Part shown: positions 46,175 to 64,000 of the stretch, in pieces
Layout of the letters: the number at the start of each line of letters is the position of its first letter
Numbering within the stretch: the stretch's first letter is position 1
IMG/VR virus record: IMGVR_UViG_3300028831_000229
Span: 32,001 to 96,000 of that record
DNA length: 64,000 nucleotides
Source of the DNA: a virus
Reading direction: 5' to 3' (one strand)
Position numbers and translations under genes: made by a program
Notes under the pieces: model-generated
Database searches by the model: none
What the model saw: only the letters and a program-made list of their open reading frames with translations
What the model was told of the DNA's origin: nothing

Positions 46175-46348
46175 ATGGCGAAGAAGTCCCCGCTCGACGC
46201 GCTCACCGGTGGTGGCGCGAGCAAGAAGAAGGCAAAGGCGAAGGCCGGCAAGAAGACCGACGCCAAGAAGGCGAAGGCCAAGACCAAGAAGGCCGGCAAG
46301 AAGTCCGCCGGCAAGAAGGCCGCGAAGAAGAGCGGCGGCGGGCGGTAG
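46175..46348 (+). CDS. Small histone-H1-like K/A-rich basic protein
   Basis: 57 aa, mostly K/A/G; aaggag RBS; followed by a terminator. Confidence 0.75.
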   Translation: MAKKSPLDALTGGGASKKKAKAKAGKKTDAKKAKAKTKKAGKKSAGKKAAKKSGGGR

Positions 46349-46375
46349 CTCGCAGCCAGCGCTCTGCGGCGTCAC

Positions 46376-46414
46376 AGCCCCGCACGTTTCACCCACGTGC
46401 GGGGCTTTTCATTT
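46376..46414 (+). terminator. Rho-independent terminator
   Basis: AGCCCCGCACGT-TTCACCC-ACGTGCGGGGCT followed by TTTCATTT. Confidence 0.85.
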
Positions 46415-46430
46415 CTACGAGGAGAGCAGC

Positions 46431-49077: not shown

Positions 49078-49397
49078 TCGGAGACGACGATTTCACCTTC
49101 ATGGCCGACTCGTTCCCAGGGCTGGTCTCTCAGCTCCAGGAGAGCGCGGTCAAGCAAGCGGAAGACGCTCACCTCGCTGATCGCGAGAAGCGTCGCGCGC
49201 TCGCGGAGGCCAACAACCAGGGGCTCAACATCTCGGAGCTGTCGATGGCCGCGTTGGAGTCGCATCGTGCGAAGCAACAGCTCGAAGCGGACATCGACAA
49301 GATCAACCAAGAAGCCGCAGACGCGGCAGCAAAGAAGGAAGCCGATGCCAAGCAACTCCCCCAAGACCGGTTCCCCGCGCCACCAATCACCGTATAG
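49074..49397 (+). CDS. Hypothetical coiled-coil protein
   Basis: ATGA overlap. Confidence 0.55.
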   Translation: MIGDDDFTFMADSFPGLVSQLQESAVKQAEDAHLADREKRRALAEANNQGLNISELSMAALESHRAKQQLEADIDKINQEAADAAAKKEADAKQLPQDRFPAPPITV

Positions 49398-49563
49398 CGC
49401 GTCGCCGTACGGCGTCGGAGCCAACCAGGACTTTCGATGCACGTGCGGCTACCGCTTCATCGGCAAGAGCGCGACGTGTCCGAATTGCGGCAACCTCGCC
49501 AAGTCGGAAGGCGAGATCACGCGCAAGGTCGACGACGCGCCCGACCTCTTCAAGGCAGGCTAA
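49345..49563 (+). CDS. Small Zn-ribbon protein
   Basis: CTCG...CPNCG; contains LAKS and ends LFKAG. Confidence 0.55.
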   Translation: MPSNSPKTGSPRHQSPYSASPYGVGANQDFRCTCGYRFIGKSATCPNCGNLAKSEGEITRKVDDAPDLFKAG

Positions 49564-49566
49564 CCC

Positions 49567-50010
49567 ATGCGCACCTTCGCTCAGCTCTCACTGCTCGTCA
49601 CGAAAGACCCCGACCAGCGCCTCAAGCTGTTCGACCAGCTGCTTGCGCTCGACGACTCCGACGCGAACACGGCGAAGACGTTCCAGGCGAGCGACATCAC
49701 GCTCTCCGCGAACGCGACCGACACCGCGGTCGCGTTCGGTGGCGTGACGAACGCCGACACGCTCCTCATCATCGCGTACCAGGAGATCGCGGTGAAGCTG
49801 AACGCAGGTGGTTCGCCCGGCACGCAGCAGTCGTTCCGCGTGAAGCCGCTGCCGCTGACCGGCAGCGCTGATCCACTGTCGTCGTTTCAGCTCGCCGACC
49901 AGCCTGGTGTGCTCTTCATTCGCGGTAAGGTCACGAGCATTCACCTCAGCAACCCGAGCAGCGGTTCTACCGCTGAAGCGGTCATCGTCCTCGTTGGCGA
50001 GGCTTCGTAA
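49567..50010 (+). CDS. Putative virion structural protein (beta-rich)
   Basis: A/T/S/V-rich; near the portal. Confidence 0.55.
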   Translation: MRTFAQLSLLVTKDPDQRLKLFDQLLALDDSDANTAKTFQASDITLSANATDTAVAFGGVTNADTLLIIAYQEIAVKLNAGGSPGTQQSFRVKPLPLTGSADPLSSFQLADQPGVLFIRGKVTSIHLSNPSSGSTAEAVIVLVGEAS

Positions 50011-50019
50011 GGAGACACC

Positions 50020-50967
50020 ATGACGGCTCTATCAGTTTTCCCCGGCCAGACCGCGAAGGAGGTCTCGCCGAATCCGAAGTGCAACAACTGCCTCCACTAC
50101 ATGAGCAACGGCGGTCGCTCCGGCGTCTGCGTCATCGGCTTGAGCCCGTGGCTGTGCGGTGATGGCGACAACCAGGTCGCCGGCTACGCTCCGCTGGATG
50201 GCCAGGCTCCGTCCGATCCCGGCAGCTTCGCCGATCCGGGTCGTGCGAACGCGAACGTTGACCAGCTTCAGATGGTGCCGATGTCGCTCACCGTGCTCGG
50301 CGACGAACACGCAGAGATGGCGAAGAGCATCCACGACGAGCTGGATCGGCCGCAGAAGATGTGCTGCCCGCTCCACCAGAACTCCGGCGTCGCGAAGAGC
50401 TACAACGCGAGCGTCGGTGCCGTCGTGTGCCAGTGCAAGCGCATCGCGAGCAAGAGCGTGGCGCAGAAGCTGTGGAAGGCGCTCGAGAACAAGGAGCGCG
50501 TGCACCTGACGTTCAACGACGTCGTGTTCTTCGTGCGTGGCATCCGCAAGGGCATGACGCCGTTCGACATCGCCATCTCGAAGCTCCACGCCGGCACCGA
50601 CAACTCCGGTCTGAACAAGTCGCTCTACGCGCCGGACAAGCTCAAGCTCGGCGACAACAACGCGCTCGCGAAGAGCCTCTACGGTGACGACTGGACGTCG
50701 CAGTTCACGGGCACGCCGTTGTTCGACGAAGCCGTGAAGCTGCGTGAGCGCGAGATCGAGCATTGCGAGGCTGAGCTGAAGCGTCGCATCGAGCGCGCAG
50801 CGCAGCGGAAGAAGGAGGCCGCGCAGGCGGCGAAGATCCAGGCCGAGAGCCCGTACGATTACGAGGCCGAGTACCAGCGCGACGAGAAGCTGCGCATCGA
50901 CAAGTCGAAGCTGATGCTCAAGCTCCAGCAGCACCGCAACAAGCAGCTCTCGCCGAAGAAGGGATAG
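50020..50967 (+). CDS. Hypothetical head-region protein with several x-x-K-S/A motifs
   Basis: MAKS, VAKS, LWKA, LNKS, LAKS; Cys clusters; C-terminal coiled coil. Confidence 0.7.
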   Translation: MTALSVFPGQTAKEVSPNPKCNNCLHYMSNGGRSGVCVIGLSPWLCGDGDNQVAGYAPLDGQAPSDPGSFADPGRANANVDQLQMVPMSLTVLGDEHAEMAKSIHDELDRPQKMCCPLHQNSGVAKSYNASVGAVVCQCKRIASKSVAQKLWKALENKERVHLTFNDVVFFVRGIRKGMTPFDIAISKLHAGTDNSGLNKSLYAPDKLKLGDNNALAKSLYGDDWTSQFTGTPLFDEAVKLREREIEHCEAELKRRIERAAQRKKEAAQAAKIQAESPYDYEAEYQRDEKLRIDKSKLMLKLQQHRNKQLSPKKG

Positions 50968-50970
50968 CCC

Positions 50971-52818
50971 ATGCAGGTCGAACCGACTCCACCAGCGTAT
51001 CCGGTCACACCGGACATGCGAAAGGCGTTCGCCGACGCGTTCGAGGAGCTGCGCGACAAGGCGTGGACTCTCGAGCCGTCCACTGCGGTGAAACCCTCAC
51101 CGCAGCAGCCGAAGTCGTGGCTCACCGATCCGTACGCACTGATGGAGACGGTCGGCATGGGCTACCGCAACGCACCGAGCGTGTTGACGTTCGATACGCT
51201 GCGCATGACTGGCGATCGGAACACCGTCATCGCGGCAATCATCCTCACGCGCGTCAATCAGGTCGCTGCGTTCTGCCGCCCGCAGGAGAACAAGTACAGC
51301 GTCGGCTTCAAGATCAGGTTGCGCGGCAGCGCGCACATGCATCGCCGGCCGACCAAGGAAGAGAACGCGAAGGCGCAGTTCATCGAGCACTACCTTCTCA
51401 ACACCGGGCTCGAGTTCAACCTCGGACGTGATGGCTTCGAGCAAGGCGTGCGCAAGCTCGTTCGCGACTCGCTGACCTACGACCAGATGACGTTCGAGAA
51501 GGTCCGCACGTTCGGCGGTCGGCCGCACAGCTTCCACGTCGTGCCGGCCGACACCATCCGCATCGTGGCGCCGAAGATCCCCAAGGGCACGCCACCGGAT
51601 CGAGCGGATCTGAAGCGCCAGCTCAAGTACGTGCAGGTCATCAACGGCGAGATCGTCACCGAGTACACGCACGACGAACTCGCGTTCGCGGTGCGCAACC
51701 CGCGCTCGTACATCAAGGTCTACGGCTACGGTCTGCCGGAGATCGAGGTGCTGATGACGACCGTCACCTCGCACCTCTGGGCGGAGGAGTGGAACCGGCG
51801 GCAGTTCTCGCAAGGCTCGACGATCAAGGGCGTCGTCAACTTTCAGGGCAACATCCCGGCTCAGCAGTTCGAGGCGTTCAAGCGCCAGTGGTACGCGCAG
51901 ATCAGCGGTGTGAGCAACGCGTGGAAGACGCCGGTGGTGAACACCGACGGCATGACGTTCATCCCGCTTCAAGGGAACAACGTCGAGATGGGGTACCAGA
52001 TGTGGATGGAGTACCTCATCAAGATCGCGAGCGCCATCTACCAGATCGATCCGGCCGAGATCAATTTCGACCTCCGTGGTGGCTCGCAGCAGCAGCCGCT
52101 CTTCATGTCGTCGAACGAGGCGCAGCAGAAGGTCAGCAAGGATCGTGGGCTCCAGCCGCTGCTCCGGTTCGTCGAGGACACCGTCAATCGGCATGTGGTC
52201 TGGCAGATCGATGACGCCTTCGAGCTGGCGTTCGTGGGCCTCGATGCCAAGACCGAAGACCAGGCGATGCAGCTGCGCCAGCAGCAGGTCACCACCATCT
52301 ACACGCTCAACGAGGTGCGTGCGATGGAGGACTTGCCACCGCTGAAGCACGGCGACATGCCGCTGAACCCTGTCTACGCTGGTGCCAAGCAGCAAGCTGA
52401 CATGGCGGAGCAGCAACAGCAGATGGGTGGCATGCCTGGCGGCGCACCTGGCGGTGGAGGCATGCCTGGTGGTCAGCCAGGCATGCCTCCTGGCCAGGAC
52501 CAGCAGGATCAAGGTCAGGAGGCCGAGCCTGGCGGTCAGCCGGCGCCAGCACAGCCGTATGCGGGTCGCTTCGCCGGCAAGCAGCCTGGTCAGGAAGAGA
52601 AGCAAGGCGCCGACAACCTGCGGCGTTTTCACGACGAGGCCAGCGACGATTCGACCTCATCGCCGGAGCGTGGTGACCACGAGACGTCATCGGACAGCGA
52701 CGACTCGTCGGAGGACAAGCGCTACGTTCATCTTCACGACTGGGACTCGACAGTGCACGCGTCCGTCAACGACAACGACCTCGTCAAGTCGACCGTCGTC
52801 TACGACGTCATCGAGTAG
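50971..52818 (+). CDS. Portal protein (SPO1/Twort/phage K-like)
   Basis: VRDSLTYDQMTFEK, NPR...YGLPEIE, NR.QFSQGSTIKG, FKRQW...GVSNAWKTPV, YQIDPAEINF, SKDRGLQPLLRFVED. Confidence 0.92.
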   Translation: MQVEPTPPAYPVTPDMRKAFADAFEELRDKAWTLEPSTAVKPSPQQPKSWLTDPYALMETVGMGYRNAPSVLTFDTLRMTGDRNTVIAAIILTRVNQVAAFCRPQENKYSVGFKIRLRGSAHMHRRPTKEENAKAQFIEHYLLNTGLEFNLGRDGFEQGVRKLVRDSLTYDQMTFEKVRTFGGRPHSFHVVPADTIRIVAPKIPKGTPPDRADLKRQLKYVQVINGEIVTEYTHDELAFAVRNPRSYIKVYGYGLPEIEVLMTTVTSHLWAEEWNRRQFSQGSTIKGVVNFQGNIPAQQFEAFKRQWYAQISGVSNAWKTPVVNTDGMTFIPLQGNNVEMGYQMWMEYLIKIASAIYQIDPAEINFDLRGGSQQQPLFMSSNEAQQKVSKDRGLQPLLRFVEDTVNRHVVWQIDDAFELAFVGLDAKTEDQAMQLRQQQVTTIYTLNEVRAMEDLPPLKHGDMPLNPVYAGAKQQADMAEQQQQMGGMPGGAPGGGGMPGGQPGMPPGQDQQDQGQEAEPGGQPAPAQPYAGRFAGKQPGQEEKQGADNLRRFHDEASDDSTSSPERGDHETSSDSDDSSEDKRYVHLHDWDSTVHASVNDNDLVKSTVVYDVIE

Positions 52819-52827
52819 GAGCACGCC

Positions 52828-55509
52828 ATGAAGCTCGTCATCGACCTCTCGAAGGGCCGCCCGAAGGGGTCCACCAACAAGGACCACAAGTGGATCGCGC
52901 GCTACACGAACGCGAAAGGCGAGATCGTGCGCGTCTACCCGGACAAGCGGCATGGTGTGATGACGGACAAGGAGCAGCTCAAGCTGCATCCTGGTGTGTC
53001 GATCAACCAGGTCGTGAGCGACGTGATGATCGGCGGTCCGACTGGTGAGACGAAGCGCGATGGTCGTCCGAGCGTGCGCGAAGGCGAGTTCGTGCGCTAC
53101 GAGGTGGCACACGAGAGCGAGCTGCGTGACCCGCGCAATCGCGAGAACTACACGCGCGACGCGATCTCTCGCGAGAAGGTCGGGCAGTACCACGTGTTCG
53201 GCTATCCGAAGGTGCACGCCATCGAGCGCGATGAGAAAGAGAAGCCGGTGCGCTTCGCCGGCTACACGCACATCGAGTACCACCCGTCGGTGCGTGCGCA
53301 CGGCTACCGGACGCCGAAGAAGATCGAAACCTTCAAGGTCGAGCCTCACGAGATCAAGACGACGGAGGAACAAGCTCCGCAACGCGGCTTCAACGCGGCG
53401 GAGCTGCCGCTCCATGGAGACCGTGGTCCTCAGCGCATCGCTGGCGGCTCTGTGTCCGGGCGCGGTCCGGTAGCGCCTCCGCACACGAAGAAGGAGCACG
53501 ACTTCTCGATGGAGTCGATCGCTCGACGTGAGCAGATCGAGAACATGCGTCTCGACGAGCAGGTCGATCCGCTCTCGTTCGCGGCGAAGCTGTACGACAA
53601 GGCAGCGTTGAAGGCCAAGGAGAAGGCGACACCCGGTGCGCGTTCGGTGCTCGAGTTCCAGGACTGGCAGCTCGCGAAGTACCACGATCGTCAAGAGCTG
53701 ATGGACAAGCTCCAGAAGCAACCTGTCGGCGCGCTCATCTCGCTCGGCTACGCCAAGCCGACTGCGACGTCTCGCAAGCTCAACGAGGCGCTCATCGCGG
53801 AATGGACGCCGATCATCATGGGCCTGAGCGGCGACAACTTCGCTGCGTTCAAGGAGACCGACGACTACCGCGCCGCGGCAGCGCGCGATGCAGAGCGCAC
53901 GAAGCGCGGGCTCCAGCGCAACAAAGGAGGCACCGACTCGCGGAAGTACGTCAACGCGTACAAGCGAACCGTGGTGAGCGACCTCTTCCAGGCTGGCGCC
54001 GAGAAGCTGCTGCGCATCGCTCGGCAGTACGAGGTCGACACGGAGAATCCGCGCCATCGCTTCGACAAGCTCGCCTACGCTTCGGTAGCGAATGAGATCC
54101 GCAAGCAGAGCCGCATCAAGGCAGAGGAAGCTGGCCTCCTCGTACCCGTGAAGCACGAAGGCGAGATCGAGCAGGCGATGCGCGAGAACGCGCGCGGCGG
54201 CGGATCGATGGAGCCGCTCTCGCCGCATGAGGCTGCCGAGCTGAAGCAAGTCACGCCGGTTGCGCGAACCGCGCTCGCCGAGATCATGCCGAAGCTCCCG
54301 GATGCATACAGGCGTGTCGTGGAGGCACGCCTGTGGCTCGACGAGCCGTCGGACGGTGGCGTGCCATTGCTCGATGCTCCGCAGTCTCGCGCGGAGACGA
54401 TGACGCGCAAGCAGCGTCACGAGAAGCTCGATGAGAAGATCGCAGAGGCTGAGGAGCGCGGAGAGACCGTGGCGCGCGACCGACGCAAGCCGCGTTCGTG
54501 GGAGCGCGAGTGGACCGGCTTCGGTTCGATCGCTGACAAGTACCAGACCTGGATCGATCCAGAGACCGGTACCTCGTTCAACATCGACGAGTACAGTGTT
54601 GGCCACCAGCGTGAGGTACTCCAGAACTACTACCGCATGGGCGTCGCTCACATCATCCGCGAGCTGTCGGTGCCCGTGACGCGCACGAAGCCTGGGAAGC
54701 ACGACGCGCCGGTTTCGCATCCTCGTGCGTTCCAGCCGAGCGCCGAGTGGAAGCAGCGCGAGAACCACGTCATCGTGCCGCTCACGAACAAGGAAATCGC
54801 GCGCCTCTCACCGGAGGAGCAACTGACCTACACCGCAGTCGGAGGTGAACCCCGTGTGCTCACGCAACAAGGCAAGGCTGTCAAGCGCTACCTCCAGATC
54901 GAGACCAAGCTGGCTACTCAGAATCGCCGTCGGTGGATGGCTCCTGGTCATCAGCGCGAGGTGGATACTTCGACCGTCTCGATCGAGAAGCTGAAGAAGC
55001 CGCGCGCCGTCGGTTGGAAGATCGAACACACCTCTCCGCTCGAGAACCAAGCGGTGCGCTTCTTCACGTCGTCGGCCAACCAGGCGCTGGCTGGTCGTCT
55101 CGGGATGCATGATCTGCACGAGTACGCGCAGCAGGTGCACCAGCAGAACGTCTCGCCGGGCACGTACGCGGAGAACCTCTACCGCCGAGCGCGAAAGCAC
55201 TACAAGGTGTTCCACGAGGTCAACAACATGACCGACAAGCAGCTCGATCGTGAGCACAGCCAGCACGCGCGTCGTGTGCAGGTGCTTCAGAGCAAGCTGC
55301 GCACGGTGAAGGACGACGACACGCACAAGCGGATCCTCCACGACATCTCGGTGTCCGAGGGGCGCGTGCACATCATGGACTTCGTTCGGCAGACGCGTGG
55401 CACCACCAAGAGCATGGTGGTCACCAAGAAGGACACCCCATTGTCGCTCATCAAGGCGTTCCTCGACTACGACTTCGAGCTGGATCGGCTCGGTGTGGAG
55501 ATGAACTGA
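52828..55509 (+). CDS. Large head-region protein containing sigma70-like regions 2 and 4
   Basis: EALIAEWTPII; SDLFQAGAEKLLRIARQY...F.KLAYASVANEI; ALAEIMPKLPDAYRRVVEARL; N-terminal LSKG. Confidence 0.65.
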   Translation: MKLVIDLSKGRPKGSTNKDHKWIARYTNAKGEIVRVYPDKRHGVMTDKEQLKLHPGVSINQVVSDVMIGGPTGETKRDGRPSVREGEFVRYEVAHESELRDPRNRENYTRDAISREKVGQYHVFGYPKVHAIERDEKEKPVRFAGYTHIEYHPSVRAHGYRTPKKIETFKVEPHEIKTTEEQAPQRGFNAAELPLHGDRGPQRIAGGSVSGRGPVAPPHTKKEHDFSMESIARREQIENMRLDEQVDPLSFAAKLYDKAALKAKEKATPGARSVLEFQDWQLAKYHDRQELMDKLQKQPVGALISLGYAKPTATSRKLNEALIAEWTPIIMGLSGDNFAAFKETDDYRAAAARDAERTKRGLQRNKGGTDSRKYVNAYKRTVVSDLFQAGAEKLLRIARQYEVDTENPRHRFDKLAYASVANEIRKQSRIKAEEAGLLVPVKHEGEIEQAMRENARGGGSMEPLSPHEAAELKQVTPVARTALAEIMPKLPDAYRRVVEARLWLDEPSDGGVPLLDAPQSRAETMTRKQRHEKLDEKIAEAEERGETVARDRRKPRSWEREWTGFGSIADKYQTWIDPETGTSFNIDEYSVGHQREVLQNYYRMGVAHIIRELSVPVTRTKPGKHDAPVSHPRAFQPSAEWKQRENHVIVPLTNKEIARLSPEEQLTYTAVGGEPRVLTQQGKAVKRYLQIETKLATQNRRRWMAPGHQREVDTSTVSIEKLKKPRAVGWKIEHTSPLENQAVRFFTSSANQALAGRLGMHDLHEYAQQVHQQNVSPGTYAENLYRRARKHYKVFHEVNNMTDKQLDREHSQHARRVQVLQSKLRTVKDDDTHKRILHDISVSEGRVHIMDFVRQTRGTTKSMVVTKKDTPLSLIKAFLDYDFELDRLGVEMN

Positions 55510-58500
55510 TGCGGATGCACAAGCCAGCTACCGTTCTTCCTCTGCGTATCGCGCAGGTCCCGCTGCCGGCGTACCCGGTGCTCGGCAACATCAAGCCTGG
55601 TGGCGTGCTGCTCAGCGGCAAGCTCGCGAGCGCGGTCGACACGCTCAAGCTGGACACGCGCGACATGCCGCCGTCGCGCTTCAAGAGCGTGCGTGACGAC
55701 ATCTCGCGCTACAGCCCGATCCCTGTGACGCGTGTGGCGTTGCGACGCAGCGAGCACGCGTACATCGGGATCATCGACTCGAACAACGAGCCGTACATCT
55801 TCGCGCTCAACAGCCAGGGCATCCTCGTCAAGCGCGCGCCGGACGCCGAGCACGCGTGGCAGCTGTTCGACCACTACATGGATGCCGAGCGCGCAACGGC
55901 GCTCGAGACACGGCGCTACGTCGCGGCCAAGGAGCAAGCATCACTCGTCATCAAGGCCGACATCAAGCAGCCGGGTTCACGTGGCGGGAAGTTCTACTTC
56001 GACAAGCACGGCAAGGTGCGCTACGGCAAGCAGCCGATGCACGATCACCACGTGCACGTCGAACTGCCGGCAAAGCACGAGCTGGAAGGTGACGCGGCAG
56101 AGCTGCACAAGCACGTTCGCAAGCAGAACCCTGCCACCGTACACGAGGCGCGGAAGCACATCCGGTCGTGGATCAAGGACAACTACAGCGCGAACGCCAA
56201 GCAGATCGATCAGACGACCGCGCACATGCTGCGCTACTTCCACGAGGAGGGTGCGCTCCACCTGCACCAGCACGATACGCAGCCGACCGCACAGCCGACC
56301 AAGGACGTTCCGCACTTCTTCAAGAAGCGCGAGGCGCTCACGCGTCCGGTTCTGCCATCACCGTTCGACGCGCAAGGGACGCGTCTCCTGGTCAACGGAT
56401 CGCCTGTGCGGCTGTCGGCTGACGCCGAGCACGCGTGCTACGCGTTCGCCAAGCGCTTCCTCGTCAACGAAGGCACGGTGAAGGGTCACGCCGAGTTCGT
56501 GCGTGGCTTCGAGAAGAGTCTCCAGTCGATGGGCGTGCCGAAGGGCACCTACGACTACAAGAACTTCGTCAAGCGCATCACCACCGAGCCGGAGAAGGAG
56601 AAGGCACCGAAGAGCAAGGAGCAGCCGACGCCGAAGACGCATCCTCACCTCTTCATCAAGCAGGACGGTCAGTTCGTCCGACTCTCGGACGTTCGGACGC
56701 CGGCAGGTAACTTCTACACCGGCAAGGGCAAGCGCGGTACGTGGGCTCGTGCTCTGCGCGAAGAGGACATCACGATGAACGTCGCCAACGGCGGCGCTCC
56801 GAAGGGTTGGAAGGGCAAGGTCATCTTCGATCCCACGAAGGACTACTACCTCACGTGGCGTCATCCCGACACCGACGAGATCGGCTACGTCTATCCGTCG
56901 CGCGCGTCTGCCTACCAGAGGAAGTTCGAGGAGGCGTCGAAGCTCGGTCTCAACATCGACCGCATCCGCGAAGGCGTGGTGCGTGACATCGAGAAGAGCG
57001 GCAACAGCATGCCGGAGCGCGTCGCAGCGCTCTGCACCTACTTGATCGACAAGGAGCACTTCCGCGTGGGAGAAGAGTCGCACGCTGAGGACACCGGCAC
57101 GTTCGGTATCGGCTCGCTGCGCGTCGAGCACGTGAAGGTGGACGGCAAGCACGTCATCTTCGATTTCCCGGGGAAGAAGGATGAGCCGTGGCGCCGCGTC
57201 GTCGACTTCAGCAAGATGCCGGAGGCGCTCCACATCATCAAGAGCTGCCTGGCGCACAAGCACAAGAAGGATCGCGTCTGGGAAGAGCTGGGTGGTGGCT
57301 GGTCGGTGGACAGCAAGGTCATCAACGAGTATCTCGACGGCTACTCGAAGGACGGCGTGAAGTTCACGGCGAAGATGTTCCGCACGTTCCACGCGAACAA
57401 GTACATGAAGAAGATGCTCGACACCCTCGAGACGCTGGCCGCAGAGCACGGCTGGGATGATGCGACGGTGAAGAAGATCTACAAGGGGTTCAAGGTCAAC
57501 GACAGAGCCGGCAAGAAGCTGCTCGACATGAAGGCGCCTGGTGGCGGCACGGTGCGCCAGGCACTCGGTCTCGAGGAGAATCACGGCGCCAAGGGCAAAG
57601 GCAAGGCGATCATCGGCGTGCTTCCGACCATCGCAACGAAGCTCGGTCACACGGTGTCCAGCTGCCGCAACAGCTACATCGATCCGGTGCTCGTGACGCC
57701 GTTCGGCGCGAAGCATGGATGGGACGAGCGCACGCTCGGCGAGAAGAAGACGCGTGACGATCTTCCGGCGTTCGAGAAGAAGCACGTCGCGAAGCCGGCG
57801 AAGCAACCGAAGGCGCCTGCATCGCCGATGAAGAAGGCCGGGATTCCGAGCCATCAAGAGCTGGCAAAGGCCAGCGAGAAGCTGCTGACCAAGGTCACGC
57901 AGAAGCACGCCGATCTGGCTCCCATGATCGATAGCTACAAGGAGACGGCGATCAAGCGGCGCTGGAACGTGCCGGCAGAAGCGTGTGGCAATTGCGATCG
58001 TGCGACCGGAGAGTTCGTCTCACAGGCACCGGCGTCGGCTGGCTTGAAGAAGTACCGCTTCGACACCTTCACGCCGGAGGGTATCGCGCGCGTTCAGAAG
58101 CTGTACGGGATGAGCGACAAGACCATCGCCGAGATGCGGAAGCGTGACCGCAAGTCGATCAAGGACGGTCACGCTGATCCGGAAGACATGTTCCACGAAG
58201 TCGCGGTCACGCCAGACGGCACCGTGATCGACTGGACGGCCAATCAGTTTGCACAGAGCGACAAGACGCTGCCCGTTCCTTTTGTGTACAAGATTGACCA
58301 CACAAAGAACAGCAAGCCGCACAGCGGCATCGAGGACGAGGAGGCGTACGCGAAGGCGCTGCCGTACGGTCACGTGGCCTACGCGCGGCACTCGAAGACC
58401 GGCAAGCTCGTCCAGGTGAAGGCGAAGGGCGTGAAGCCGGTGCAGATGAACACGCAGGCACCTTTCCTTGTGCACCCCGATCAGCAGCCGTTCCATCCCA

Positions 58501-61085
58501 AGAAGAACGAGAAGGACTACAAGGTCTGGCGCACCGTGCATGATGCGAAGCCGCAGACCTACGACGAGACGGTCCGCGCGATTCACGGCGCGATCAAGCA
58601 CCACTTCGGCGCGGATGACGAAGAGCTGACCGACAGCGTGGTGGATCATTTCCAAGAGGAAGGGGCGATGCACGCGCCGGATCATGAGCCAGAGGACAGC
58701 GTTGACGAAGATGACGATCACATCAAGCGTGACTATCTCAAGATCGACCACGGGAAGTACGCGACCGACATCGCAAATGCACGCTCTGCGGCACACGGCG
58801 CCGTTCTCTCCGCAGCACGCAACGCTGTGTACGAAGCTCACGGTGCGCATCTCTTCACGGCATACACGGAGCGGTTGTTCCGTGATCGGAAGGAGACTCC
58901 GTACGGCGGGTTCAAGATCGACGAAGGCGTGCACCAGCTGGCCGATCAAGCTCAGGCGAATGTGCAGGAGGAGGCGCAACGTGCAGGCGACGAGGCTGAG
59001 CGTCAAGCAGGAGAGCACGCCGATCAGGACATCGCAGACAGACGGCACGCGAACGAGATGCTCCGGCAAGGGCTTGTCACGTTCGAGCACATCGATCCGA
59101 CGCCGGCTGAGCACGCGCTCGAACGTATGAACGATGCGCTTCCGAAGGTGATTACTCAGATCAGTAACGCCATAAAGCAGGTCGCACCAGCGTTGGCATC
59201 GTTCTACGACGTGGAGAACAAGTTCGAGGATGAACCGGAGCACGAGGACGTTACCTTCGAGCGGTCGGATGTCAGTGACCCGGAGACCGACCTCTCTGAG
59301 ATCCTCGACTTCATGAGCAACTACGGTGGCGACGACGCTGTTACCAGTGATGACTTGGAGCCGGAGTCTGTCGATTTGCCGGAACTCCCCGATGAGCCGT
59401 CCTTTGACGGCGATGATGAAGAGGACGCGGAAGACGACGAGACCTACCAAGCCGAGTTGGCAGCGTACAACGGTGTGATCAAACAGCGCGCGGCTACGCT
59501 GAATGCTGCACGCTTGAAGTATGCCGAGCAAGCCGTGACCGGGCTGTCGAAGTTGGAGACGGTGCTGAAGAACGCGACAGCGACGCTCAAGGCCAGAGGG
59601 AAGGAGGCGACCGCTGCACGCGAGAAGCTCGAGAAGGACTTCGATGAGAAGACCGGTGACGGCAGCTTCGATGACGATCTGGTGTTCATGAACCAGAAGG
59701 AGTTCCCGCAGGTCGCGAAGGAGATGAACCCAGAGGAAGAGGAGGACGAAGAGATCGCTGATGAAGGTGAAGGCGATGAAGGCGACGAGGAAGAGGAGCC
59801 GCAGGAGGACGCGCGCTATGACGACGCACGTCGTGCTGCGCAGACACTGCGTGACCACGTCAGAAGCATCATCGACGGTGACTTCGAGAGCGCGTACGAC
59901 GGTGAAGAAGTCACCACGGGTCTGGAGTCCGCAGTTGAGCAGGTGCGCACCTTGCGGAAGGAGTACGCCTCGGTCATCAAGAAACTGTCGAAGAAGAAAG
60001 GCAAGGTCTCCAAGGCGGTTCCGATCATCCAGCGACCGGGCGTACGCGGTGGCCATTTCCACTTCAACACGAAGGGCAAGGTCGTCTACGAACGGCACAT
60101 CACATACAACGCGCCAGCTCGGTCATGGCGTGGCTTCGATGACCTGGCGTTTCGTCGTGTGATGGACGAGCACAAGCACGTCGAGGTCGCGCACAAGAAG
60201 CACGTCAAGCGTCTGGCTGACGAAATGAAGACCCTGCGTGCAAAGAAGCAGATCGTTCCGAAGCACCGCCGTGCAGCTCTTCAGCTGAAGATCAACAAGC
60301 TACGCGCTCAGCAGCTCGACCATCGCATGGTCGTTGCTGCTGCTCGCGAGCAGCGGCTGCGCGTCAACAAGCAGCGAGCTGTTGCGAAGCAGAAGTTCGT
60401 GGCTACCCAGCGCCTGGCCTCGAAGAAGAAGCAGACCGCGACGGCGAGGAAGCGTAAGCGCGAGATGATCATGCCGATTGGCGTGGGCATGGGGATCGGC
60501 ACGCACACGATCAGGGAGAAGCCGGTAAAGCCGAAGGTCAAGACGTTGGAGCGCATGGTCTATCGCAAGGACGTGGAGACCGATCCACCTGTGAAGGAAG
60601 CGCCGAAGGTCGAGCCTGCGCCAGAACAGGAGCCCAAGAAGGAGCCGCAGACCGCACAGGAGCGCGCAGCAGCTGCAAGCGCTGCCAAGTGGGATCCGCA
60701 GTCCAGGTCGTGGGTGGTCAACGGGAAACCGATGGTCACGCCGGCTTCGGAGAAGTACCGCGAGGCTCCTCGCGAAGTGGTGTCCTACAAGCAGAAGACC
60801 TACGAGGAGCAGGTGGCCGAAGAGCAGCGAAAGCGTGCGTACTTCGACGCGAGCGCCAAGCGTGCCCGAGCGAAATACGAGGCGCTGCGTGCAGCCAAGG
60901 AAGCGGAGGTCGTGCACCAGAAGGAGCACGCACCACCGCCTGTGGAGGAGAAAGAAGCCCAGGGCATGAAGAAGCGCGGCGTGCTCTCCAAGCTCGGTGG
61001 CCTCTTCCGTCGGAAGAAGGACACTGGCACAATCACCGCGTCGTTCGTGGACTCGCACAACATCTTCAAGGTGAGCTACCTATGA
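55509..61085 (+). CDS. 1858-aa multidomain protein (putative polyprotein) with an embedded DNA topoisomerase IB
   Basis: FRVG, SLRVEHV, FDFPGK, TAKMFRTFHA, LGHT...SYIDP; plus a C..H..D module and acidic/basic regions. Confidence 0.9.
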   Translation: MRMHKPATVLPLRIAQVPLPAYPVLGNIKPGGVLLSGKLASAVDTLKLDTRDMPPSRFKSVRDDISRYSPIPVTRVALRRSEHAYIGIIDSNNEPYIFALNSQGILVKRAPDAEHAWQLFDHYMDAERATALETRRYVAAKEQASLVIKADIKQPGSRGGKFYFDKHGKVRYGKQPMHDHHVHVELPAKHELEGDAAELHKHVRKQNPATVHEARKHIRSWIKDNYSANAKQIDQTTAHMLRYFHEEGALHLHQHDTQPTAQPTKDVPHFFKKREALTRPVLPSPFDAQGTRLLVNGSPVRLSADAEHACYAFAKRFLVNEGTVKGHAEFVRGFEKSLQSMGVPKGTYDYKNFVKRITTEPEKEKAPKSKEQPTPKTHPHLFIKQDGQFVRLSDVRTPAGNFYTGKGKRGTWARALREEDITMNVANGGAPKGWKGKVIFDPTKDYYLTWRHPDTDEIGYVYPSRASAYQRKFEEASKLGLNIDRIREGVVRDIEKSGNSMPERVAALCTYLIDKEHFRVGEESHAEDTGTFGIGSLRVEHVKVDGKHVIFDFPGKKDEPWRRVVDFSKMPEALHIIKSCLAHKHKKDRVWEELGGGWSVDSKVINEYLDGYSKDGVKFTAKMFRTFHANKYMKKMLDTLETLAAEHGWDDATVKKIYKGFKVNDRAGKKLLDMKAPGGGTVRQALGLEENHGAKGKGKAIIGVLPTIATKLGHTVSSCRNSYIDPVLVTPFGAKHGWDERTLGEKKTRDDLPAFEKKHVAKPAKQPKAPASPMKKAGIPSHQELAKASEKLLTKVTQKHADLAPMIDSYKETAIKRRWNVPAEACGNCDRATGEFVSQAPASAGLKKYRFDTFTPEGIARVQKLYGMSDKTIAEMRKRDRKSIKDGHADPEDMFHEVAVTPDGTVIDWTANQFAQSDKTLPVPFVYKIDHTKNSKPHSGIEDEEAYAKALPYGHVAYARHSKTGKLVQVKAKGVKPVQMNTQAPFLVHPDQQPFHPKKNEKDYKVWRTVHDAKPQTYDETVRAIHGAIKHHFGADDEELTDSVVDHFQEEGAMHAPDHEPEDSVDEDDDHIKRDYLKIDHGKYATDIANARSAAHGAVLSAARNAVYEAHGAHLFTAYTERLFRDRKETPYGGFKIDEGVHQLADQAQANVQEEAQRAGDEAERQAGEHADQDIADRRHANEMLRQGLVTFEHIDPTPAEHALERMNDALPKVITQISNAIKQVAPALASFYDVENKFEDEPEHEDVTFERSDVSDPETDLSEILDFMSNYGGDDAVTSDDLEPESVDLPELPDEPSFDGDDEEDAEDDETYQAELAAYNGVIKQRAATLNAARLKYAEQAVTGLSKLETVLKNATATLKARGKEATAAREKLEKDFDEKTGDGSFDDDLVFMNQKEFPQVAKEMNPEEEEDEEIADEGEGDEGDEEEEPQEDARYDDARRAAQTLRDHVRSIIDGDFESAYDGEEVTTGLESAVEQVRTLRKEYASVIKKLSKKKGKVSKAVPIIQRPGVRGGHFHFNTKGKVVYERHITYNAPARSWRGFDDLAFRRVMDEHKHVEVAHKKHVKRLADEMKTLRAKKQIVPKHRRAALQLKINKLRAQQLDHRMVVAAAREQRLRVNKQRAVAKQKFVATQRLASKKKQTATARKRKREMIMPIGVGMGIGTHTIREKPVKPKVKTLERMVYRKDVETDPPVKEAPKVEPAPEQEPKKEPQTAQERAAAASAAKWDPQSRSWVVNGKPMVTPASEKYREAPREVVSYKQKTYEEQVAEEQRKRAYFDASAKRARAKYEALRAAKEAEVVHQKEHAPPPVEEKEAQGMKKRGVLSKLGGLFRRKKDTGTITASFVDSHNIFKVSYL

Positions 61086-61804
61086 GCAACTACCGCGCCT
61101 ACTACGCGTACGACGGTGACGAAGAGCGCTACCTGCGCTTTCTCGAAGCACCGGGCGACGGCCTCGGGATGGTTCTCGGCGACGCGCCAACCGTGGAGGA
61201 CGTGTTGGCTCGTGGCGGTACCGTCTTCGTGAAGGCGATGAAGGAAGAGCAGCCACCGAAGCTCGTCATCACCGATCGCAAGAAGAAGTGCATGAAGTGC
61301 GGTAGCCGCGAGTGGACCGACATGCACAAGGACGGCGTGGGCGACTGTTGCGACAAGCGCATGCGCAAGGCACTGCCGAAGAAGGACAAGAGCGCGGCGC
61401 CAGCCAAGAAGGCGAAGTCGTCCAAGGCCAACAAGCAGGTCGCCGGCAAGACCGGCAAGGTGCGCAGCTCGTACCCGCAGGAAGCCGGCGGTCAGCCGGC
61501 ACCGCAACCGACGCCGCAAGAGCAGTCGGCTCCTCCGAAGCCGAACCCGGCGCGCACGCCGCCGGATGCCGAAGAGGGACCGCCGATCGCCAGTCCGAGC
61601 GAGCTGGCGAACATCCTCGGCACGCCGGTGACGTCGTTGCAGCGCATCGCGCACCGGTTCCGCGACAACAAGAAGCTCGGCGGACGGTCGGGCTTCGTGA
61701 CCTTCATGAAGACGCGCCTGAAGCGCATGGCCAACAAGCACAAGCTCGACGGAGATTACTTCGGGCTGATCTACGACGCGCTGTGCCCCAAGAAGCCGGC
61801 GTGA
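61082..61804 (+). CDS. Hypothetical head-region protein
   Basis: ATGA overlap; FVKA and MRKA motifs; CxxC..CC. Confidence 0.7.
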   Translation: MSNYRAYYAYDGDEERYLRFLEAPGDGLGMVLGDAPTVEDVLARGGTVFVKAMKEEQPPKLVITDRKKKCMKCGSREWTDMHKDGVGDCCDKRMRKALPKKDKSAAPAKKAKSSKANKQVAGKTGKVRSSYPQEAGGQPAPQPTPQEQSAPPKPNPARTPPDAEEGPPIASPSELANILGTPVTSLQRIAHRFRDNKKLGGRSGFVTFMKTRLKRMANKHKLDGDYFGLIYDALCPKKPA

Positions 61805-61850
61805 CCTAACCCCTGAATGCTGGCATACTAGCCAGGCTGGAGACCCACCG

Positions 61851-62243
61851 ATGCCAGGAAAGCACACCGCCAAGCAGAAGCGCCAAGCGAAGCACGTCGC
61901 AGCTTCGGAGCGCGCTCGCGGCATGAGCCCGAAGAGAGCCGAGAGCGTCGGCTGGGCCACCGTGAACAAGCAGAAGAAAACGCGCAAGTCCTTCGACGTG
62001 ATCTCGTTGGACGAAGCGCACGCTCGCCTTCGGAAGGACATGGGCGGAGGAGGCGGCGAGGTGAAACCGCAGGTGAGCGCGACGCCGTTCAATCGACGTC
62101 GTGCGCCGAAGGAGACGGTCAGGATGAAACCGATCACCAACGCGGAAGCCGCTGCGAACCTTCGCGCCGGCAAGTTCCACGAGAAGTCGCTCACCCTCGG
62201 TCTCACGCAACTCGCGCGCGCCTTGCGCAAGGCGCGGCGGTAA
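61851..62243 (+). CDS. Basic protein with ChaB-like N-terminus
   Basis: T.KQKRQAKHV..SE..RG.S.KRAE...WATVNK. Confidence 0.65.
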   Translation: MPGKHTAKQKRQAKHVAASERARGMSPKRAESVGWATVNKQKKTRKSFDVISLDEAHARLRKDMGGGGGEVKPQVSATPFNRRRAPKETVRMKPITNAEAAANLRAGKFHEKSLTLGLTQLARALRKARR

Positions 62244-62313
62244 CAGGATCAACCACCGCAAGCGTCGAGTGACGCTGGCGGGCATCAATGCAACGTCACT
62301 CACGGAGAACATC

Positions 62314-62880
62314 ATGAGCAAGCAGAACGAAGACCAGGATCTGACGAAGTCGCTCGGCGACCTGTTTCAGGAGGAGCTGGGCAAGTCGACCGACGCGAAG
62401 GTGCTCGACTGCCCGCACTGCGGTGAAGGCATCAGCAAGGCCGACGTCATCGCCAAGGCGAAGGGCGGTCTGCCGGGCAAGGCGAAGAAGGAGATGGAGT
62501 CCGAGAAGCAGAACTCGGCGAGCGGCAAGGGCGCCAACGCGCGCTACGGCAACGCGCCGAAGCCGCACGTCGCCACCAAGAAGGCCGGCAAGAAGGTCGC
62601 GAAGACGAGCCCGGCGTACCCTGGCGCGATGGCGGCGAAGAAGAGCGATGCCGAGGACGACGTGAGCACCGAGGACGACACCTCCGAGGAGACCACGGAG
62701 ACCACCGAGGAGAACGTCCAGAAGTCGGCGCGGCCGACGATCTACGGCACGGAGCACGTCCAGTATTACACCGACCCGTCGGCGACCGGTGACGCGGCGA
62801 TCGCCAAGATGATCGCGGAAGGCGGTCTCGGTCAGCAGCCGACGCAGCCGATCGACAAGAACCACAAGCGCACCTGGTAG
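62314..62880 (+). CDS. Hypothetical head-region protein
   Basis: ggag RBS; LTKS, LGKS, IAKA, VQKS motifs; CPHC. Confidence 0.7.
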   Translation: MSKQNEDQDLTKSLGDLFQEELGKSTDAKVLDCPHCGEGISKADVIAKAKGGLPGKAKKEMESEKQNSASGKGANARYGNAPKPHVATKKAGKKVAKTSPAYPGAMAAKKSDAEDDVSTEDDTSEETTETTEENVQKSARPTIYGTEHVQYYTDPSATGDAAIAKMIAEGGLGQQPTQPIDKNHKRTW

Positions 62881-62892
62881 GAGGCAACCGTC

Positions 62893-63132
62893 ATGATCGC
62901 ACGCTGCAAGTTCCAGGTCACGAATGTGCTCCCGGCGTATCCGAACTCGGAGCCGGAGAGCACCGCCAAGCGTCTGGTGCTCGAGACGCGATACGACAAC
63001 ACCGTCGCCGAGGATCAGGCGTTCACCAAGTACACGCCGACCGGTCGTATGGACGTCGTGATCGATAACCCGAACGTCACGAGCCAGCTCAACGTCGGCG
63101 ATCACGTCTACATCGACATCACGAAGATCTAG
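62893..63132 (+). CDS. Small beta-rich phage protein
   Basis: RCKFQV...F.KYTP.G.M...IDNP...G..VYID; aggagg RBS. Confidence 0.7.
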   Translation: MIARCKFQVTNVLPAYPNSEPESTAKRLVLETRYDNTVAEDQAFTKYTPTGRMDVVIDNPNVTSQLNVGDHVYIDITKI

Positions 63133-63162
63133 CGACCACGCAACCAACCACGCAGGCATACA

Positions 63163-64000
63163 ATGAACCTCGACGATCTATTCGGTGGCGTCATCCTCGG
63201 TGGCACCACACTGGTGAAGGCTCAGGTCATCACCCCGGTTCGGGCAGCACGTCTGCCTGCGTTGCGCGATCTCACCGCAAAGCTCGAAGCGCTGTACGAC
63301 GAGCGCCTTTCGCTCATGATGGAAGACATCGACCGCGTTCTCGCGAACGCGGATGCGCGCAAGGCACTCGGCTTGTACGTCGTCGACGGGGGACTCTCCG
63401 GTGGATCGGACCTGCGCAAGGCTGTGCTGCACGAGGTTCAACAGCCGCAGTTCATCAACGATCTCTTCAAGGCCGCTCCGAAGACGGTGCCGACGCGTGT
63501 CGGCGGCAACAAGAGCGACCAAGGCACCGCACAGAAGTTCGAGCACGGCACGTACAGCACGCACCAGACCCCCAAGGGGAAGACGCAGCTGACGTTCCGC
63601 AGCCACACTGGCGTGACCGAAGACCTCGGTCAACACGGTGACCCCAAGGCAGTCGAGAGCGCGCAGTCGAAGCACCTCGCGTCTCACGGCTACGCGCCGA
63701 CTGGCAAGAAGGTCGGTCGTCCGTCTACCGGACAGAAGGCCGAGCGCAAGGAAGTGACGCAGGCGACCGCTGGCTCTCGCGGTGGCAAGTATTACGTCAC
63801 GGCGAGCGGCAAGATTCGCTACGGCACGAAGCCGCAAGGCGAGTTCGCGCGCGAAGCCGACCCGTCCGAGATCGCGCAGCACCTCTCGCACTACCGTCCG
63901 TTACCGTTCATGGGGACGAATGGCAACGACGCGAAGCTGATCAAGCACCTCATGGACAACGGTGAGGAGCTTGGCTTCTCCGACACGGACATCCAGTTTC
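63163..64000 (+). CDS. 3'-partial large head-region protein (absent from the ORF track because it has no stop in the window)
   Basis: Open frame MNLDDLFGG...LVKAQ...LRKAV...LFKAA...GSRGGKYYVTASGKIRYG... runs to the window end. Confidence 0.8.
   Translation, partial: MNLDDLFGGVILGGTTLVKAQVITPVRAARLPALRDLTAKLEALYDERLSLMMEDIDRVLANADARKALGLYVVDGGLSGGSDLRKAVLHEVQQPQFINDLFKAAPKTVPTRVGGNKSDQGTAQKFEHGTYSTHQTPKGKTQLTFRSHTGVTEDLGQHGDPKAVESAQSKHLASHGYAPTGKKVGRPSTGQKAERKEVTQATAGSRGGKYYVTASGKIRYGTKPQGEFAREADPSEIAQHLSHYRPLPFMGTNGNDAKLIKHLMDNGEELGFSDTDIQF

Follow-up and report, generated by a model that had tools for sequence, protein, structure and literature searches.

The window analysed here is a stretch of 64,000 nucleotides (nt) of viral DNA, bases 32001-96000 of the IMG/VR record IMGVR_UViG_3300028831_000229, and its last part, from about 49 to 64 kilobases (kb), holds the beginning of a phage head module. 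Most proteins of this part carry a short motif formed by a hydrophobic residue, any residue, lysine and then serine, alanine or glycine (Phi-x-K-[SAG]), which is read as the cleavage site of a prohead protease of the HK97 type (family S78) because the same pattern in scaffold, protease and capsid protein recurs in related phages, in SP-10 and in phage K. Since capsid-building and multi-enzyme proteins carry the same Lys motif, a type IB topoisomerase (TopoIB) and other enzymes encoded here are probably packaged into the capsid, where they would be trimmed. In the reading favoured with moderate confidence, carrier proteins would bring enzyme modules into the prohead, the S78 protease would trim them, and the products would be ejected with the DNA.

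Distribution of the motif

Counted against 2,000 composition shuffles, the 49-64 kb part of the window contains 37 matches in 4,816 amino acids (aa), that is 0.77 per 100 aa, with 22.0 ± 4.5 in the shuffled sequences (P = 0.0005). The 1-49 kb part contains 39 matches in 13,325 aa (0.29 per 100 aa), with 48.6 ± 6.7 in the shuffled sequences (P = 0.94). A preliminary description of the window had singled out the motif by inspection, and the excess it suggested is present as a regional one. All 28 tetrapeptides it listed are found at the genes named, and the five coordinates given for an 1858-aa protein are the Lys codons K149, K776, K787, K949 and K1502. Of the 10 matches that this protein contains, that listing covered 5; the omitted ones, FEKS334, VPKG343, IEKS494, IIKS576 and IYKG657, fall within the part of the protein formed by a region X and TopoIB.

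The regional excess is supplied by three small proteins of 72 aa (3 matches, 0.27 expected), 315 aa (7, 1.6-1.7 expected) and 188 aa (5, 1.1 expected). At chance by count are the portal (3, 1.6 expected), an 893-aa protein (3, 3.4 expected), the protein at 61082 (2, 1.5 expected), the protein at 61851 (1, 0.8 expected) and the in-window fragment of the protein at 63163 (3, 1.4 expected). Over the whole genome, 4 of 124 open reading frames (ORFs) reach P ≤ 0.001, and all four encode head-module proteins: the 315-aa protein, the 188-aa protein (P 0.001-0.0035 across shuffles), the prohead protease (8 sites, 1.0 expected) and an acidic, 297-aa scaffold-like protein (14 sites, 2.0 expected). The four remain significant when the shuffle is confined to 20-aa local stretches. 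Lys lies within the motif in 34 of 101 cases in these proteins, and the same frame with another residue at the P1 position was identified for 4 of 49 Arg, 5 of 86 Glu and none of 80 Asp. The 34 sites have Ser (18), Ala (8) or Gly (8) at P1', and Leu at P2' in 11.

Protease, scaffold, capsid protein and portal

As the preliminary description anticipated, a prohead protease and a major capsid protein with the motif near its N-terminus are encoded downstream. The motif occurs once in the capsid protein (phrog_752, E 2.6e-94), as LNKA at residues 30-33 (K32/A33, the slash marking the putative cut here and below). SPO1 Gp6.1 (PDB 9vel, E 1e-82) reads DVDALNKAL where this protein reads DVEALNKAL. 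For a Staphylococcus-phage capsid protein, PDB has a 463-aa precursor (5lii_P) as well as a 439-aa chain (9row_B), and residue 1 of the latter is precursor residue 25, which by alignment offsets is aligned with A33. The site is found at the same capsid position in phage K (VVK24/S25) and in an A511-type Listeria phage (ALK23/S24); the latter agrees with the A511 capsid precursor Cps, which reportedly is cut after Lys (K/S). At the level of sequence, the motif marks the putative capsid maturation point K32/A33.

The capsid protein matches 782 phage records, all at less than 60% identity, the SPO1-like Bacillus phages being the best at about 38%. The protease (genome 102579-103289, with a putative catalytic Ser in GFSIEG) matches phrog_1028 'head maturation protease' (E 8e-51) and aligns over 136 aa, at 51% identity, with the SP-10 procapsid protease (E 3e-41), which passes Pfam Peptidase_S78 (PF04586) with 36.6 bits for a cut-off of 21. 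Direct Pfam and NCBIfam scans give no match for the protease of this phage, and its probable S78 membership is assigned by transitivity through the SP-10 relative. The link to Herelleviridae drawn in the preliminary description was right: given the capsid protein about 38% identical to the SPO1 type and the protease 51% identical to the S78 protease of SP-10, the head module is by homology of Herelleviridae kind, in an otherwise unrelated genome of high GC content, and this says nothing of the virus family.

The portal presents a C-terminal site, D-L-V-K/S (aa 603-607, nt 52780-52791), and a cut there would take off the last 9 residues. All 8 aligned portals of this lineage have D603, L604 and K606 (D-L-x-K/[SA]), and the tail of the SP-10 portal reads VSKS/ETKFLRIEIE; the site is absent from phage K and from one Listeria phage. 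The peptides that follow the site in the portal (52780-52818) and in the 893-aa protein (55447-55509) are similar in their alternating hydrophobic and acidic residues (..VVYDVIE and ..FLDYDFELD here; ..LFDTIDLD and ..FLRIEIE in relatives). These C-terminal peptides may be a common docking peptide.

Conservation in related phages

The comparison comprises 11 uncultured relatives, five from IMG/VR found through the protease (L005-L009) and six of 64-68% GC found through the N-terminal leader domain of the 1858-aa protein (L016, L017, L019, L020, L023 and L025). L005-L008 have 58-61% GC, and L009, from a complete 117-kb record, 43%. In L005-L009 the protease has 6-8 sites and the scaffold 9-13, values reached by none of 500 shuffles, and the capsid site is kept in all (ELSK/A or ELNK/A). 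The protease has 6-7 sites in L016, L019, L020, L023 and L025, and the scaffold 10-11 in the last four of these. The order protease, scaffold, capsid protein is kept in 10 of the 11 relatives, L017 stopping after its leader protein, ahead of these genes. In the relatives found through the leader the order is 315-aa-like protein, portal, leader protein, 130/188-aa-like proteins, a 467-482-aa protein, MuF, 289-aa protein, protease, scaffold and capsid protein, and the equivalent proteins are enriched each time where present. An alignment of the scaffold (five valid rows, the L008 row excluded) has most sites fixed in position between diverged flanks.

Cultured phages present the same pattern. 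SP-10 has 8 sites in the protease (1.3 expected) and 8 in the scaffold-like protein (1.4 expected) among 19 genes tested, and phage K has 7 in the protease (1.7 expected) and 7 in the scaffold (1.5 expected) among 12 genes tested; the protease of the Listeria phage is also enriched (5, 1.2 expected).

The small enriched proteins are conserved as well. The homolog of the 315-aa protein in the relative G001 has 6 sites (1.4 expected), 4 of the 7 sites here have an aligned site in it, and another 6 relatives have homologs with 4-11 sites (P ≤ 0.008); the protein is probably core or scaffold-like and digested. Homologs of the 188-aa protein are enriched in the six leader-found relatives where present (5-11 sites, P ≤ 0.004). 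The 72-aa protein has a GC content of 0.82 at third codon positions and a single residue after its C-terminal Lys-Ala; its syntenic homolog in the 18.5-kb locus of G001 ends ..PDLKKG-F (tblastn E 5e-4).

Features of the head module

The features of the head module in the window are the following (window positions, strand).

49345-49563, plus: 72-aa zinc-ribbon ORF with IGKS39, LAKS51 and a C-terminal LFKA68
From 49567: 147-aa ORF, in the block between the 72-aa and 315-aa genes
50020-50967, plus: 315-aa Cys-rich/coiled-coil head-module protein with 7 sites, immediately 5' of the portal
50971-52818, plus: portal (Pfam Phage_portal, E 1.4e-23)
52828-55509, plus: 893-aa protein of no known family, with sites near both termini
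55509 (start) to 61085 (end of the basic module), plus: 1858-aa protein with a TopoIB core
55509-55958, plus: leader domain, aa 1-150 of the 1858-aa protein, ending in VIK149/A
55980-56024, plus: RGG hairpin tag 1, RGGKFYFDKHGKVRY, aa 158-172 of the 1858-aa protein, 8 residues past K149
56916-57443, plus: TopoIB catalytic core, aa 470-645 (PF01028, E 5.8e-32)
57828-57872, plus: linker sites MKK776/A and LAK787/A, at the C-terminal end of the TopoIB module
58347-58439, plus: YAK949/A, then the PYGH tag (PYGHVAY..KAKGVKP, aa 952-977; tag at 58362-58439)
60006-60089, plus: VSK1502/A, then RGG tag 2 (aa 1513-1527; tag at 60045-60089), where the basic C-terminal module starts
61082-61804, plus: 240-aa protein with a small N-terminal part, zinc ribbon, MRK96/A-LPKK, basic linker and conserved C-terminal domain
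61361-61372, plus: MRK96/A-LPKK site of the 240-aa protein
61851-62243, plus: 130-aa basic protein with LRKA125 two residues ahead of the stop
62314-62880, plus: 188-aa protein with LTKS10, LGKS22, ISKA40, IAKA46 and VQKS135
Between the 188-aa gene and 63163: 79-aa protein
63163-64000, plus: first 279 aa of a 1713-aa SNF2-helicase protein, which continues past the window end
63778-63822, plus: RGG tag in the SNF2 protein, aa 206-220

The topoisomerase IB protein

The 1858-aa protein is formed by the leader, TopoIB and at least three further modules delimited by homology breaks. It has no match in the phage collection, nor in IMG/VR with the whole protein as query; its close homologs, from protein collections, are P0002 (1368 aa), P0003 (1126 aa) and P0005 (930 aa). 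The TopoIB match covers positions 10-169 of the 228 of the PF01028 profile, within a module that spans approximately aa 150-770. H714 and Y723 (LGHT...SYIDP) are invariant in 4 homologs, and the catalytic core with the region of the active-site Tyr is accordingly present by sequence criteria in what is a predicted enzyme. Three distant relatives end their protein directly after the TopoIB module.

Residues 1-773 (leader, a part of unknown kind and TopoIB) are common to P0002 and P0003, and the homology ends exactly at MKKA774. It restarts exactly at a site, VSKA1500 here and VKKA and IEKA in the two homologs, so that all three keep Phi-x-K-A despite unrelated residues upstream; P0019 and P0027 repeat the K1502 pattern. 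Between the two breaks lie about 725 residues here, about 330 in P0002 (an ADP-ribosyltransferase, PF03496) and about 55 in P0003.

The single sites were rated from an alignment of the seven TopoIB-bearing members. K149 has a site at the aligned column in 5 of 7, shifted by 1-3 residues in the other 2. FEKS is present in 4, VPKG in 5, IEKS in 2, IIKS in 4 and IYKG in 5, and all of these lie within or adjoining the enzyme core. On this basis K149, K949 and K1502 are likely to be real sites, K776 and K787 are plausible ones, and K336, K345, K496, K578 and K659 are probably chance or buried matches. The sites had been placed at domain borders in the preliminary description, which has comparative support for K149 (leader/cargo), K949 (ahead of the PYGH tag) and K1502 (acidic/basic), but less so for the phage-specific K776 and K787; as a rule for the whole protein it is not supported, half of the 10 matches being probably chance. 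An AlphaFold model of residues 1-960 from a 4-row alignment (mean predicted local distance difference test (pLDDT) 42.8) is too poor for a comparison of borders, and the K776/K787 region is a low-confidence coil in it. For the Cys-His module (aa 786-949), the ESM Atlas gave unnamed clusters and a papain-fold toxin lead at 0.88, under the 0.9 mark, which was not used.

The leader family and its C-terminal partner

A profile search with the leader gave 70 cluster representatives among 1.84 billion, 42 of them at E ≤ 1e-10. In proteins that range from 84 to 1858 aa the leader is always N-terminal, the matched stretch starting by residue 75. The analysis comprises 60 members; nine short ones (P0043, P0050, P0053, P0055, P0063, P0065, P0066, P0070 and P0072) were not fetched, and P0052, repetitive and with no matched stretch, was dropped. 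A site lies within 50 residues past profile position 130 in 47 of the 60 (about 28% expected), most commonly at +17.

The model of the leader (pLDDT 83.4) has a helix, a four-stranded sheet, a long helix (113-152) and the tag as a hairpin. Foldseek gave no match for this fold in PDB or BFVD at E ≤ 1e-3, and a complex prediction of portal and leader scored 0.00, which speaks neither for nor against binding.

The G001 leader, with 46% identity to the one here, opens a 320-aa protein that ends in the homolog of the 240-aa gene. L009 (a protein of 320 aa), L008 (one of 603 aa) and 34 of 62 family members have the leader and the 240-aa C-terminal domain in a single protein. Phi-x-K-A/LP is found at most 70 residues upstream of GxGxTRYxY (about 27-32 in the positions listed) in 32 of these 34. 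Judged from these fusions, leader and C-terminal domain are the two ends of one ancestral protein. Variable enzyme modules stand between them in the 34 members; here the two ends are on two genes, with an insert of about 1,700 residues.

The inner modules identified by Pfam in the 62 members are 2H/LigT phosphoesterase (15), NUDIX (12), TopoIB (7), DUF5661 (5), ADP-ribosyltransferases (4), EncFtn-like (2), GNAT (1) and Acb1-like (1). By domain content this cargo repertoire is typical of injected counter-defence enzymes. The EncFtn-like modules are encapsulin-cargo ferritin domains and the Acb1-like one an anti-CBASS phosphoesterase, in leader relatives among P0006-P0073.

Hairpin tags and module borders

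Candidate sites are often found just ahead of short basic hairpin tags of two forms, RGG-x-aromatic...G-K-V-x-Y and PYGH-x-AY. A site Lys lies at most 15 residues upstream in 17 of 18 RGG tags and in 12 of 13 PYGH tags of the stored proteins, mostly at 2-5 residues in the latter. The RGG tags of the 1858-aa protein come after K149 and K1502, and its PYGH tag after K949; RGG tag 1 is modelled as a beta-hairpin (E162-164/E170-172). P0004, a weak match to the 1858-aa protein with InPase, ddrB-ParB and LPD1 domains, contains the unit of site and RGG tag three times. The role of the tags could be DNA binding, capsid retention or protease docking.

Ends of homology are likewise enriched at sites. 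In stored proteins of at least 250 aa, P0004 left out, 275 of 2,394 ends of BLAST local alignments adjoin a site, compared with 138 ± 12 for random positions (z = 11, a score that, as those that follow, overstates independence because the proteins are related). With R, E, D, Q or T at P1 the values are z = -4.3, -1.8, -3.8, 1.7 and 2.5.

Other candidate carrier and cargo proteins

The 893-aa protein has a 9-residue N-terminal peptide ending in LSK/G (nt 52846-52857) and an acidic-hydrophobic C-terminal peptide of 17 residues after LIK/A (nt 55447-55458). Its G001 homolog (1340 aa, 27% identity) keeps both (MLVIDVVK/A and MKK/S..YDYDFEF) and goes on into an RGG tag and the basic module, which here ends the 1858-aa protein. 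No Pfam family was identified in the 893-aa protein at E ≤ 0.01. A sigma-70 reading of it was rejected, with no sigma family in Pfam at E ≤ 1, a level at which remote homology is possible.

The SNF2 protein consists of an N-terminal module and SNF2 (SNF2-rel_dom, E 1.4e-16; Helicase_C, E 4e-10), and its N-terminal sites are LVK19/A, LRK86/A and LFK103/A. LVKA17 is kept in L008 and L009, and LFKA101 in L009 (1655 aa); the L008 homolog (471 aa, without SNF2) keeps the first site and an LAKA site ahead of its tag. Matches within the SNF2 core lack such conservation, and most relatives have just the N-terminal 467-482 aa of this protein. The SNF2 protein and the 893-aa protein are thus alike in their short N-terminal peptides bounded by conserved sites.

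The 130-aa and 188-aa genes form one gene in L008, L009, L019, L020 and L025, with 10 sites in the 404-aa protein of L009 (2.5 expected) and 14 in the 874-aa protein of L008 (4.8 expected). These fused genes carry sites at the joints, and fusion and fission at sites are expected of proteins that would be cut there anyway.

Gene order and neighbouring genes

The record is a single sequence of 117,941 base pairs with 63% GC and nearly all genes on the plus strand. Its ends (genome 1-100 and 117842-117941) have about 85 bases in common, as judged by eye, which indicates a contig circularly closed or terminally redundant; from this it looks like the complete genome of an uncultured phage. Past the window end follow a weak MuF-like protein, a 289-aa protein and then the block at genome 102579-106391, formed by the protease, two small ORFs, the scaffold-like protein and the major capsid protein. 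Every cargo candidate is encoded downstream of the portal (window 50971) and upstream of the protease (genome 102579), inside the head-gene block. No large terminase was identified beside the portal.

Directly 5' of the head module (window 48265-49077) is a ParB_N-domain protein (E 5.4e-6), whose C-terminal part has a G001 homolog in the syntenic place. Further upstream, the longest ORF of window 46107-47546 opens with about 100 Arg/Pro-rich residues of low complexity, so that this start is probably wrong; from 46407 onward, Pfam gives no family at E ≤ 1. A serpin-like reading of a 280-aa ORF (genome 24317-25159) was rejected, with no Pfam family at E ≤ 1, where remote homology is again possible.

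Proposed mechanism and alternatives

The candidate site has mostly Leu, Met, Val or Ile at P3, Lys at P1, Ser, Ala or Gly at P1' and often Leu at P2', and its reader would be the S78 protease. During prohead maturation this enzyme would digest the scaffold, itself and the small core proteins, as the T4 paradigm and the family assignment suggest, and would trim the capsid protein and the portal. The genes in the approximately 18 kb from portal to protease would encode carriers with inserted enzyme modules, the carriers being the N-terminal 150-aa leader family and the N-terminal module of about 470 aa, and the inserts TopoIB and SNF2 here and ADP-ribosyltransferase, 2H phosphoesterase, NUDIX and others in relatives. 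The carriers would bring this cargo into the prohead, where the protease would remove short terminal peptides and the leader and would cut some module joints, especially before hairpin tags; the released enzymes would be retained in the capsid and pass into the host together with the DNA. In the giants a subset of the matches would be real sites. A wider proposal, which is tentative and may well go too far, is that carrier, Phi-x-K/[SAG] sites and basic hairpin tags form a portable grammar of S78 phages, able to load almost any enzyme and to free single ones, the hairpin staying as an N-terminal handle that keeps the enzyme on the packaged DNA or guides its exit through the tail; TopoIB, the Cys-His module and the SNF2 helicase would be the enzymes delivered here.

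Several observations weigh against the favoured reading. The phage is known as a metagenomic contig alone, and its cutting, packaging and injection steps are inferred. The giants are not enriched (10 matches with 9.3-9.4 expected in the 1858-aa protein, 9 with 10.0 expected in the whole 1713-aa protein), so that their sites rest on position and not on number. The earlier statement that most proteins carry the motif is accordingly true but of little weight for the long ones, and its reading as a prohead-protease site is supported by the density in protease and scaffold and by the capsid position, but not by the counts in the giants. MKKA and LAKA occur only in this phage, P0002 having PYKA there and P0003 no Lys. 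VIK/A falls in the last turns of a confident helix (pLDDT 91 at 141-150, 64 at 151-160), which weighs mildly against an exposed linker. In thirteen of the 60 leader proteins the 50 residues past the leader end contain no site: in 10 of these the first match is FPKG of GYDWTFPKG at +93 to +107, in a NUDIX module after the leader (by eye), and the remaining ones are P0008 (+87), P0051 (+202) and P0057 (+57). Site and tag may be one conserved structural element, and their association need then not mean cutting. The scaffold of the Listeria phage is not significant (3 sites, 1.6 expected), and the MuF-like protein (genome 100718-101671) has no match here and 8 in its G001 ortholog (1.5 expected), which indicates that the set of motif-rich proteins differs between relatives. 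Two proteins also have somewhat more of the reversed motif than chance would give (6 with 1.6 expected, 5 with 2.0 expected), which is judged to be largely a by-product of Ala or Ser at P2 combined with Leu at P2'. Finally, the shuffle statistics overstate independence, the proteins of a family sharing ancestry.

Part of these observations would also fit a rather unlikely alternative in which the motif serves as protease site in the classical substrates alone (scaffold, protease, small core proteins, capsid protein and portal), and the giants stay intact, either packaged whole as the N4 virion RNA polymerase or not packaged, their matches being due to chance or to linker or tag structure. The counts in the giants, the poor conservation of matches in the TopoIB and SNF2 cores and the position of K149 inside a modelled helix are as this would predict, and the N4 virion RNA polymerase is packaged unprocessed, according to the accessible text of PMC5512222. 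It leaves aside, however, the near-fixed distance of the post-leader site in 47 of 60 members, the homology breakpoints tied specifically to Lys sites, the maintenance of VSKA, VKKA and IEKA after unrelated sequence, the conserved site-bounded terminal peptides of the 893-aa and SNF2 proteins, and gene fusion and fission at sites. Quite improbable is the cutting of the joints by another protease, borne by the cargo (autoprocessing by a zincin-like metallopeptidase, MPTase) or by the host, before packaging or after injection. MPTase-driven autoprocessing was proposed by Iyer et al. 2017 (PMC5512222, as far as its accessible text goes), and an HE..H motif such as HEELHG is seen by eye in several leader-family relatives; the weak papain-fold lead for the Cys-His module would also fit. 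Pfam gives no peptidase family in either giant at E ≤ 0.01, however, and the junction motif is the one of the capsid maturation point and the scaffold. Lys at P1 also fits the S78 family, HK97 gp5 being cut after Lys. As for a functionless artefact of composition or periodicity in Lys/Ala-rich helical proteins, the scaffold-like and 315-aa proteins are indeed helical and Lys-rich and the reversed motif is mildly raised, but global and local shuffles were exceeded in every run, and the same frame has no excess of Arg, Glu or Asp. Positions are moreover conserved across genomes of 43%-68% GC and in Bacillus and Staphylococcus phages, and the capsid site matches a deposited mature N-terminus. This explanation is very improbable, the controls bringing it close to refuted.

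If the favoured reading of protease-trimmed, capsid-loaded cargo is true, it answers how the giant polyvalent proteins enter the capsid and get split, the splitter being the ordinary head-maturation protease with a readable site grammar and not an embedded peptidase. For the large group of phages that have HK97-type proteases, cargo modules and mature N-termini would then be predictable from sequence. The carrier domains would be a family (70 cluster representatives) with swappable counter-defence enzymes, and a type IB topoisomerase would join the proteins delivered by phages. It would also suggest a natural way to put foreign proteins into capsids, a use already made of the T4 targeting sequence. 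The specificity of the protease is testable in cultured Herelleviridae (SPO1, phage K), where the same motif pattern is present.

Comparison with known systems

The closest head modules are those of Herelleviridae (SPO1, SP-10, phage K and A511-type phages), with a homologous capsid protein, portal, scaffold and protease (here a putative S78 enzyme), the capsid Lys site at the aligned position, and a scaffold and protease rich in Phi-x-K-[SAG]. In SP-10 and K, however, the portal is directly followed by the protease, whereas here the two are separated by about 18 kb of putative carrier and cargo genes; the genome has 63% GC and no close cultured relative was found. A literature search on prohead cleavage in Herelleviridae, SPO1 gp6.1, A511 or phage 812 gave nothing on the site grammar, most subscription journals being outside the search.

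Type IB topoisomerases are packaged in the virion by poxviruses for use in early infection; these are eukaryotic viruses, and no protease-site grammar is known for them. The search gave no relevant paper on a virion-packaged phage topoisomerase IB.

Prohead proteases of giant phages such as SPN3US and phiKZ cut after Glu. Many head proteins of these phages are packaged, cleaved by the prohead protease and ejected (PMC10052503); as far as the accessible text describes them, these ejection proteins differ from the present ones in having no leader family, Lys sites or polyvalent architecture.

In T4, according to the accessible text of PMC9026906, core proteins are cut into fragments by gp21, and Alt and the internal proteins lose N-terminal propeptides (Alt also a C-terminal one) to gp21 and are then ejected. 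Like T4 IPI-III and Alt, the putative cargo here belongs to the head module and would enter the prohead core, and one short motif, judged here from sequence, would serve core, capsid and cargo; Alt is an ADP-ribosyltransferase, a module also found in relatives of this phage. The differences, as far as that source goes, are that gp21 cuts after Glu (L/I-x-E) whereas here Lys occupies P1 and the protease probably belongs to S78 (HK97), that the T4 targeting peptide has 10 residues whereas the carrier here is a folded domain of 150 aa, and that the putative cargo here consists of giant proteins of several modules, which contain candidate sites and hairpin tags.

Polyvalent proteins are giant late-gene products with several enzyme domains (SNF2, ART (ADP-ribosyltransferase), ParB, 2H, NUDIX-like) and a predicted co-delivery with DNA (Iyer, Burroughs, Anand, de Souza and Aravind 2017, PMC5512222, in its accessible part). 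The proteins here are alike in having at least two unrelated effector or enzyme domains per late-gene polypeptide, relatives adding ART, 2H, NUDIX, DUF5661 and GNAT, and P0004 is a classic polyvalent member carrying the same unit of site and RGG tag. An embedded zincin-like MPTase was proposed there, as a common and not universal feature, whereas none was detected in the giants here, whose junction motif would be the prohead-protease site. 'Topoisomerase' appears in the accessible text of that article only in a reference title, so TopoIB is not a listed module in it. No published Lys-site processing of polyvalent cargo was found, in a search that again left most subscription journals outside.

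Two other systems carry large proteins in the head or virion. The Dar proteins of phage P1 (DarB, DdrB, DarA, Hdf) comprise large anti-restriction proteins of helicase/methylase type in the head, of which DarA and DdrB are proteolytically processed (PMC5512222, accessible part). Lvh of Thermus phage Lalka27a is a virion-associated superfamily 2 helicase of 1715 aa encoded among structural genes (10.64898/2026.04.20.719267, accessible part), and thus a cultured precedent for a virion-borne giant helicase; no Thermus match to the 1713-aa SNF2 protein was identified in the phage collection. Protease-processed head cargo (T4, giant phages) and polyvalent proteins are then known already, and new here would be the Lys-specific S78 junction signal, the folded carrier family with its C-terminal partner, the unit of site and hairpin, and TopoIB as putative cargo.

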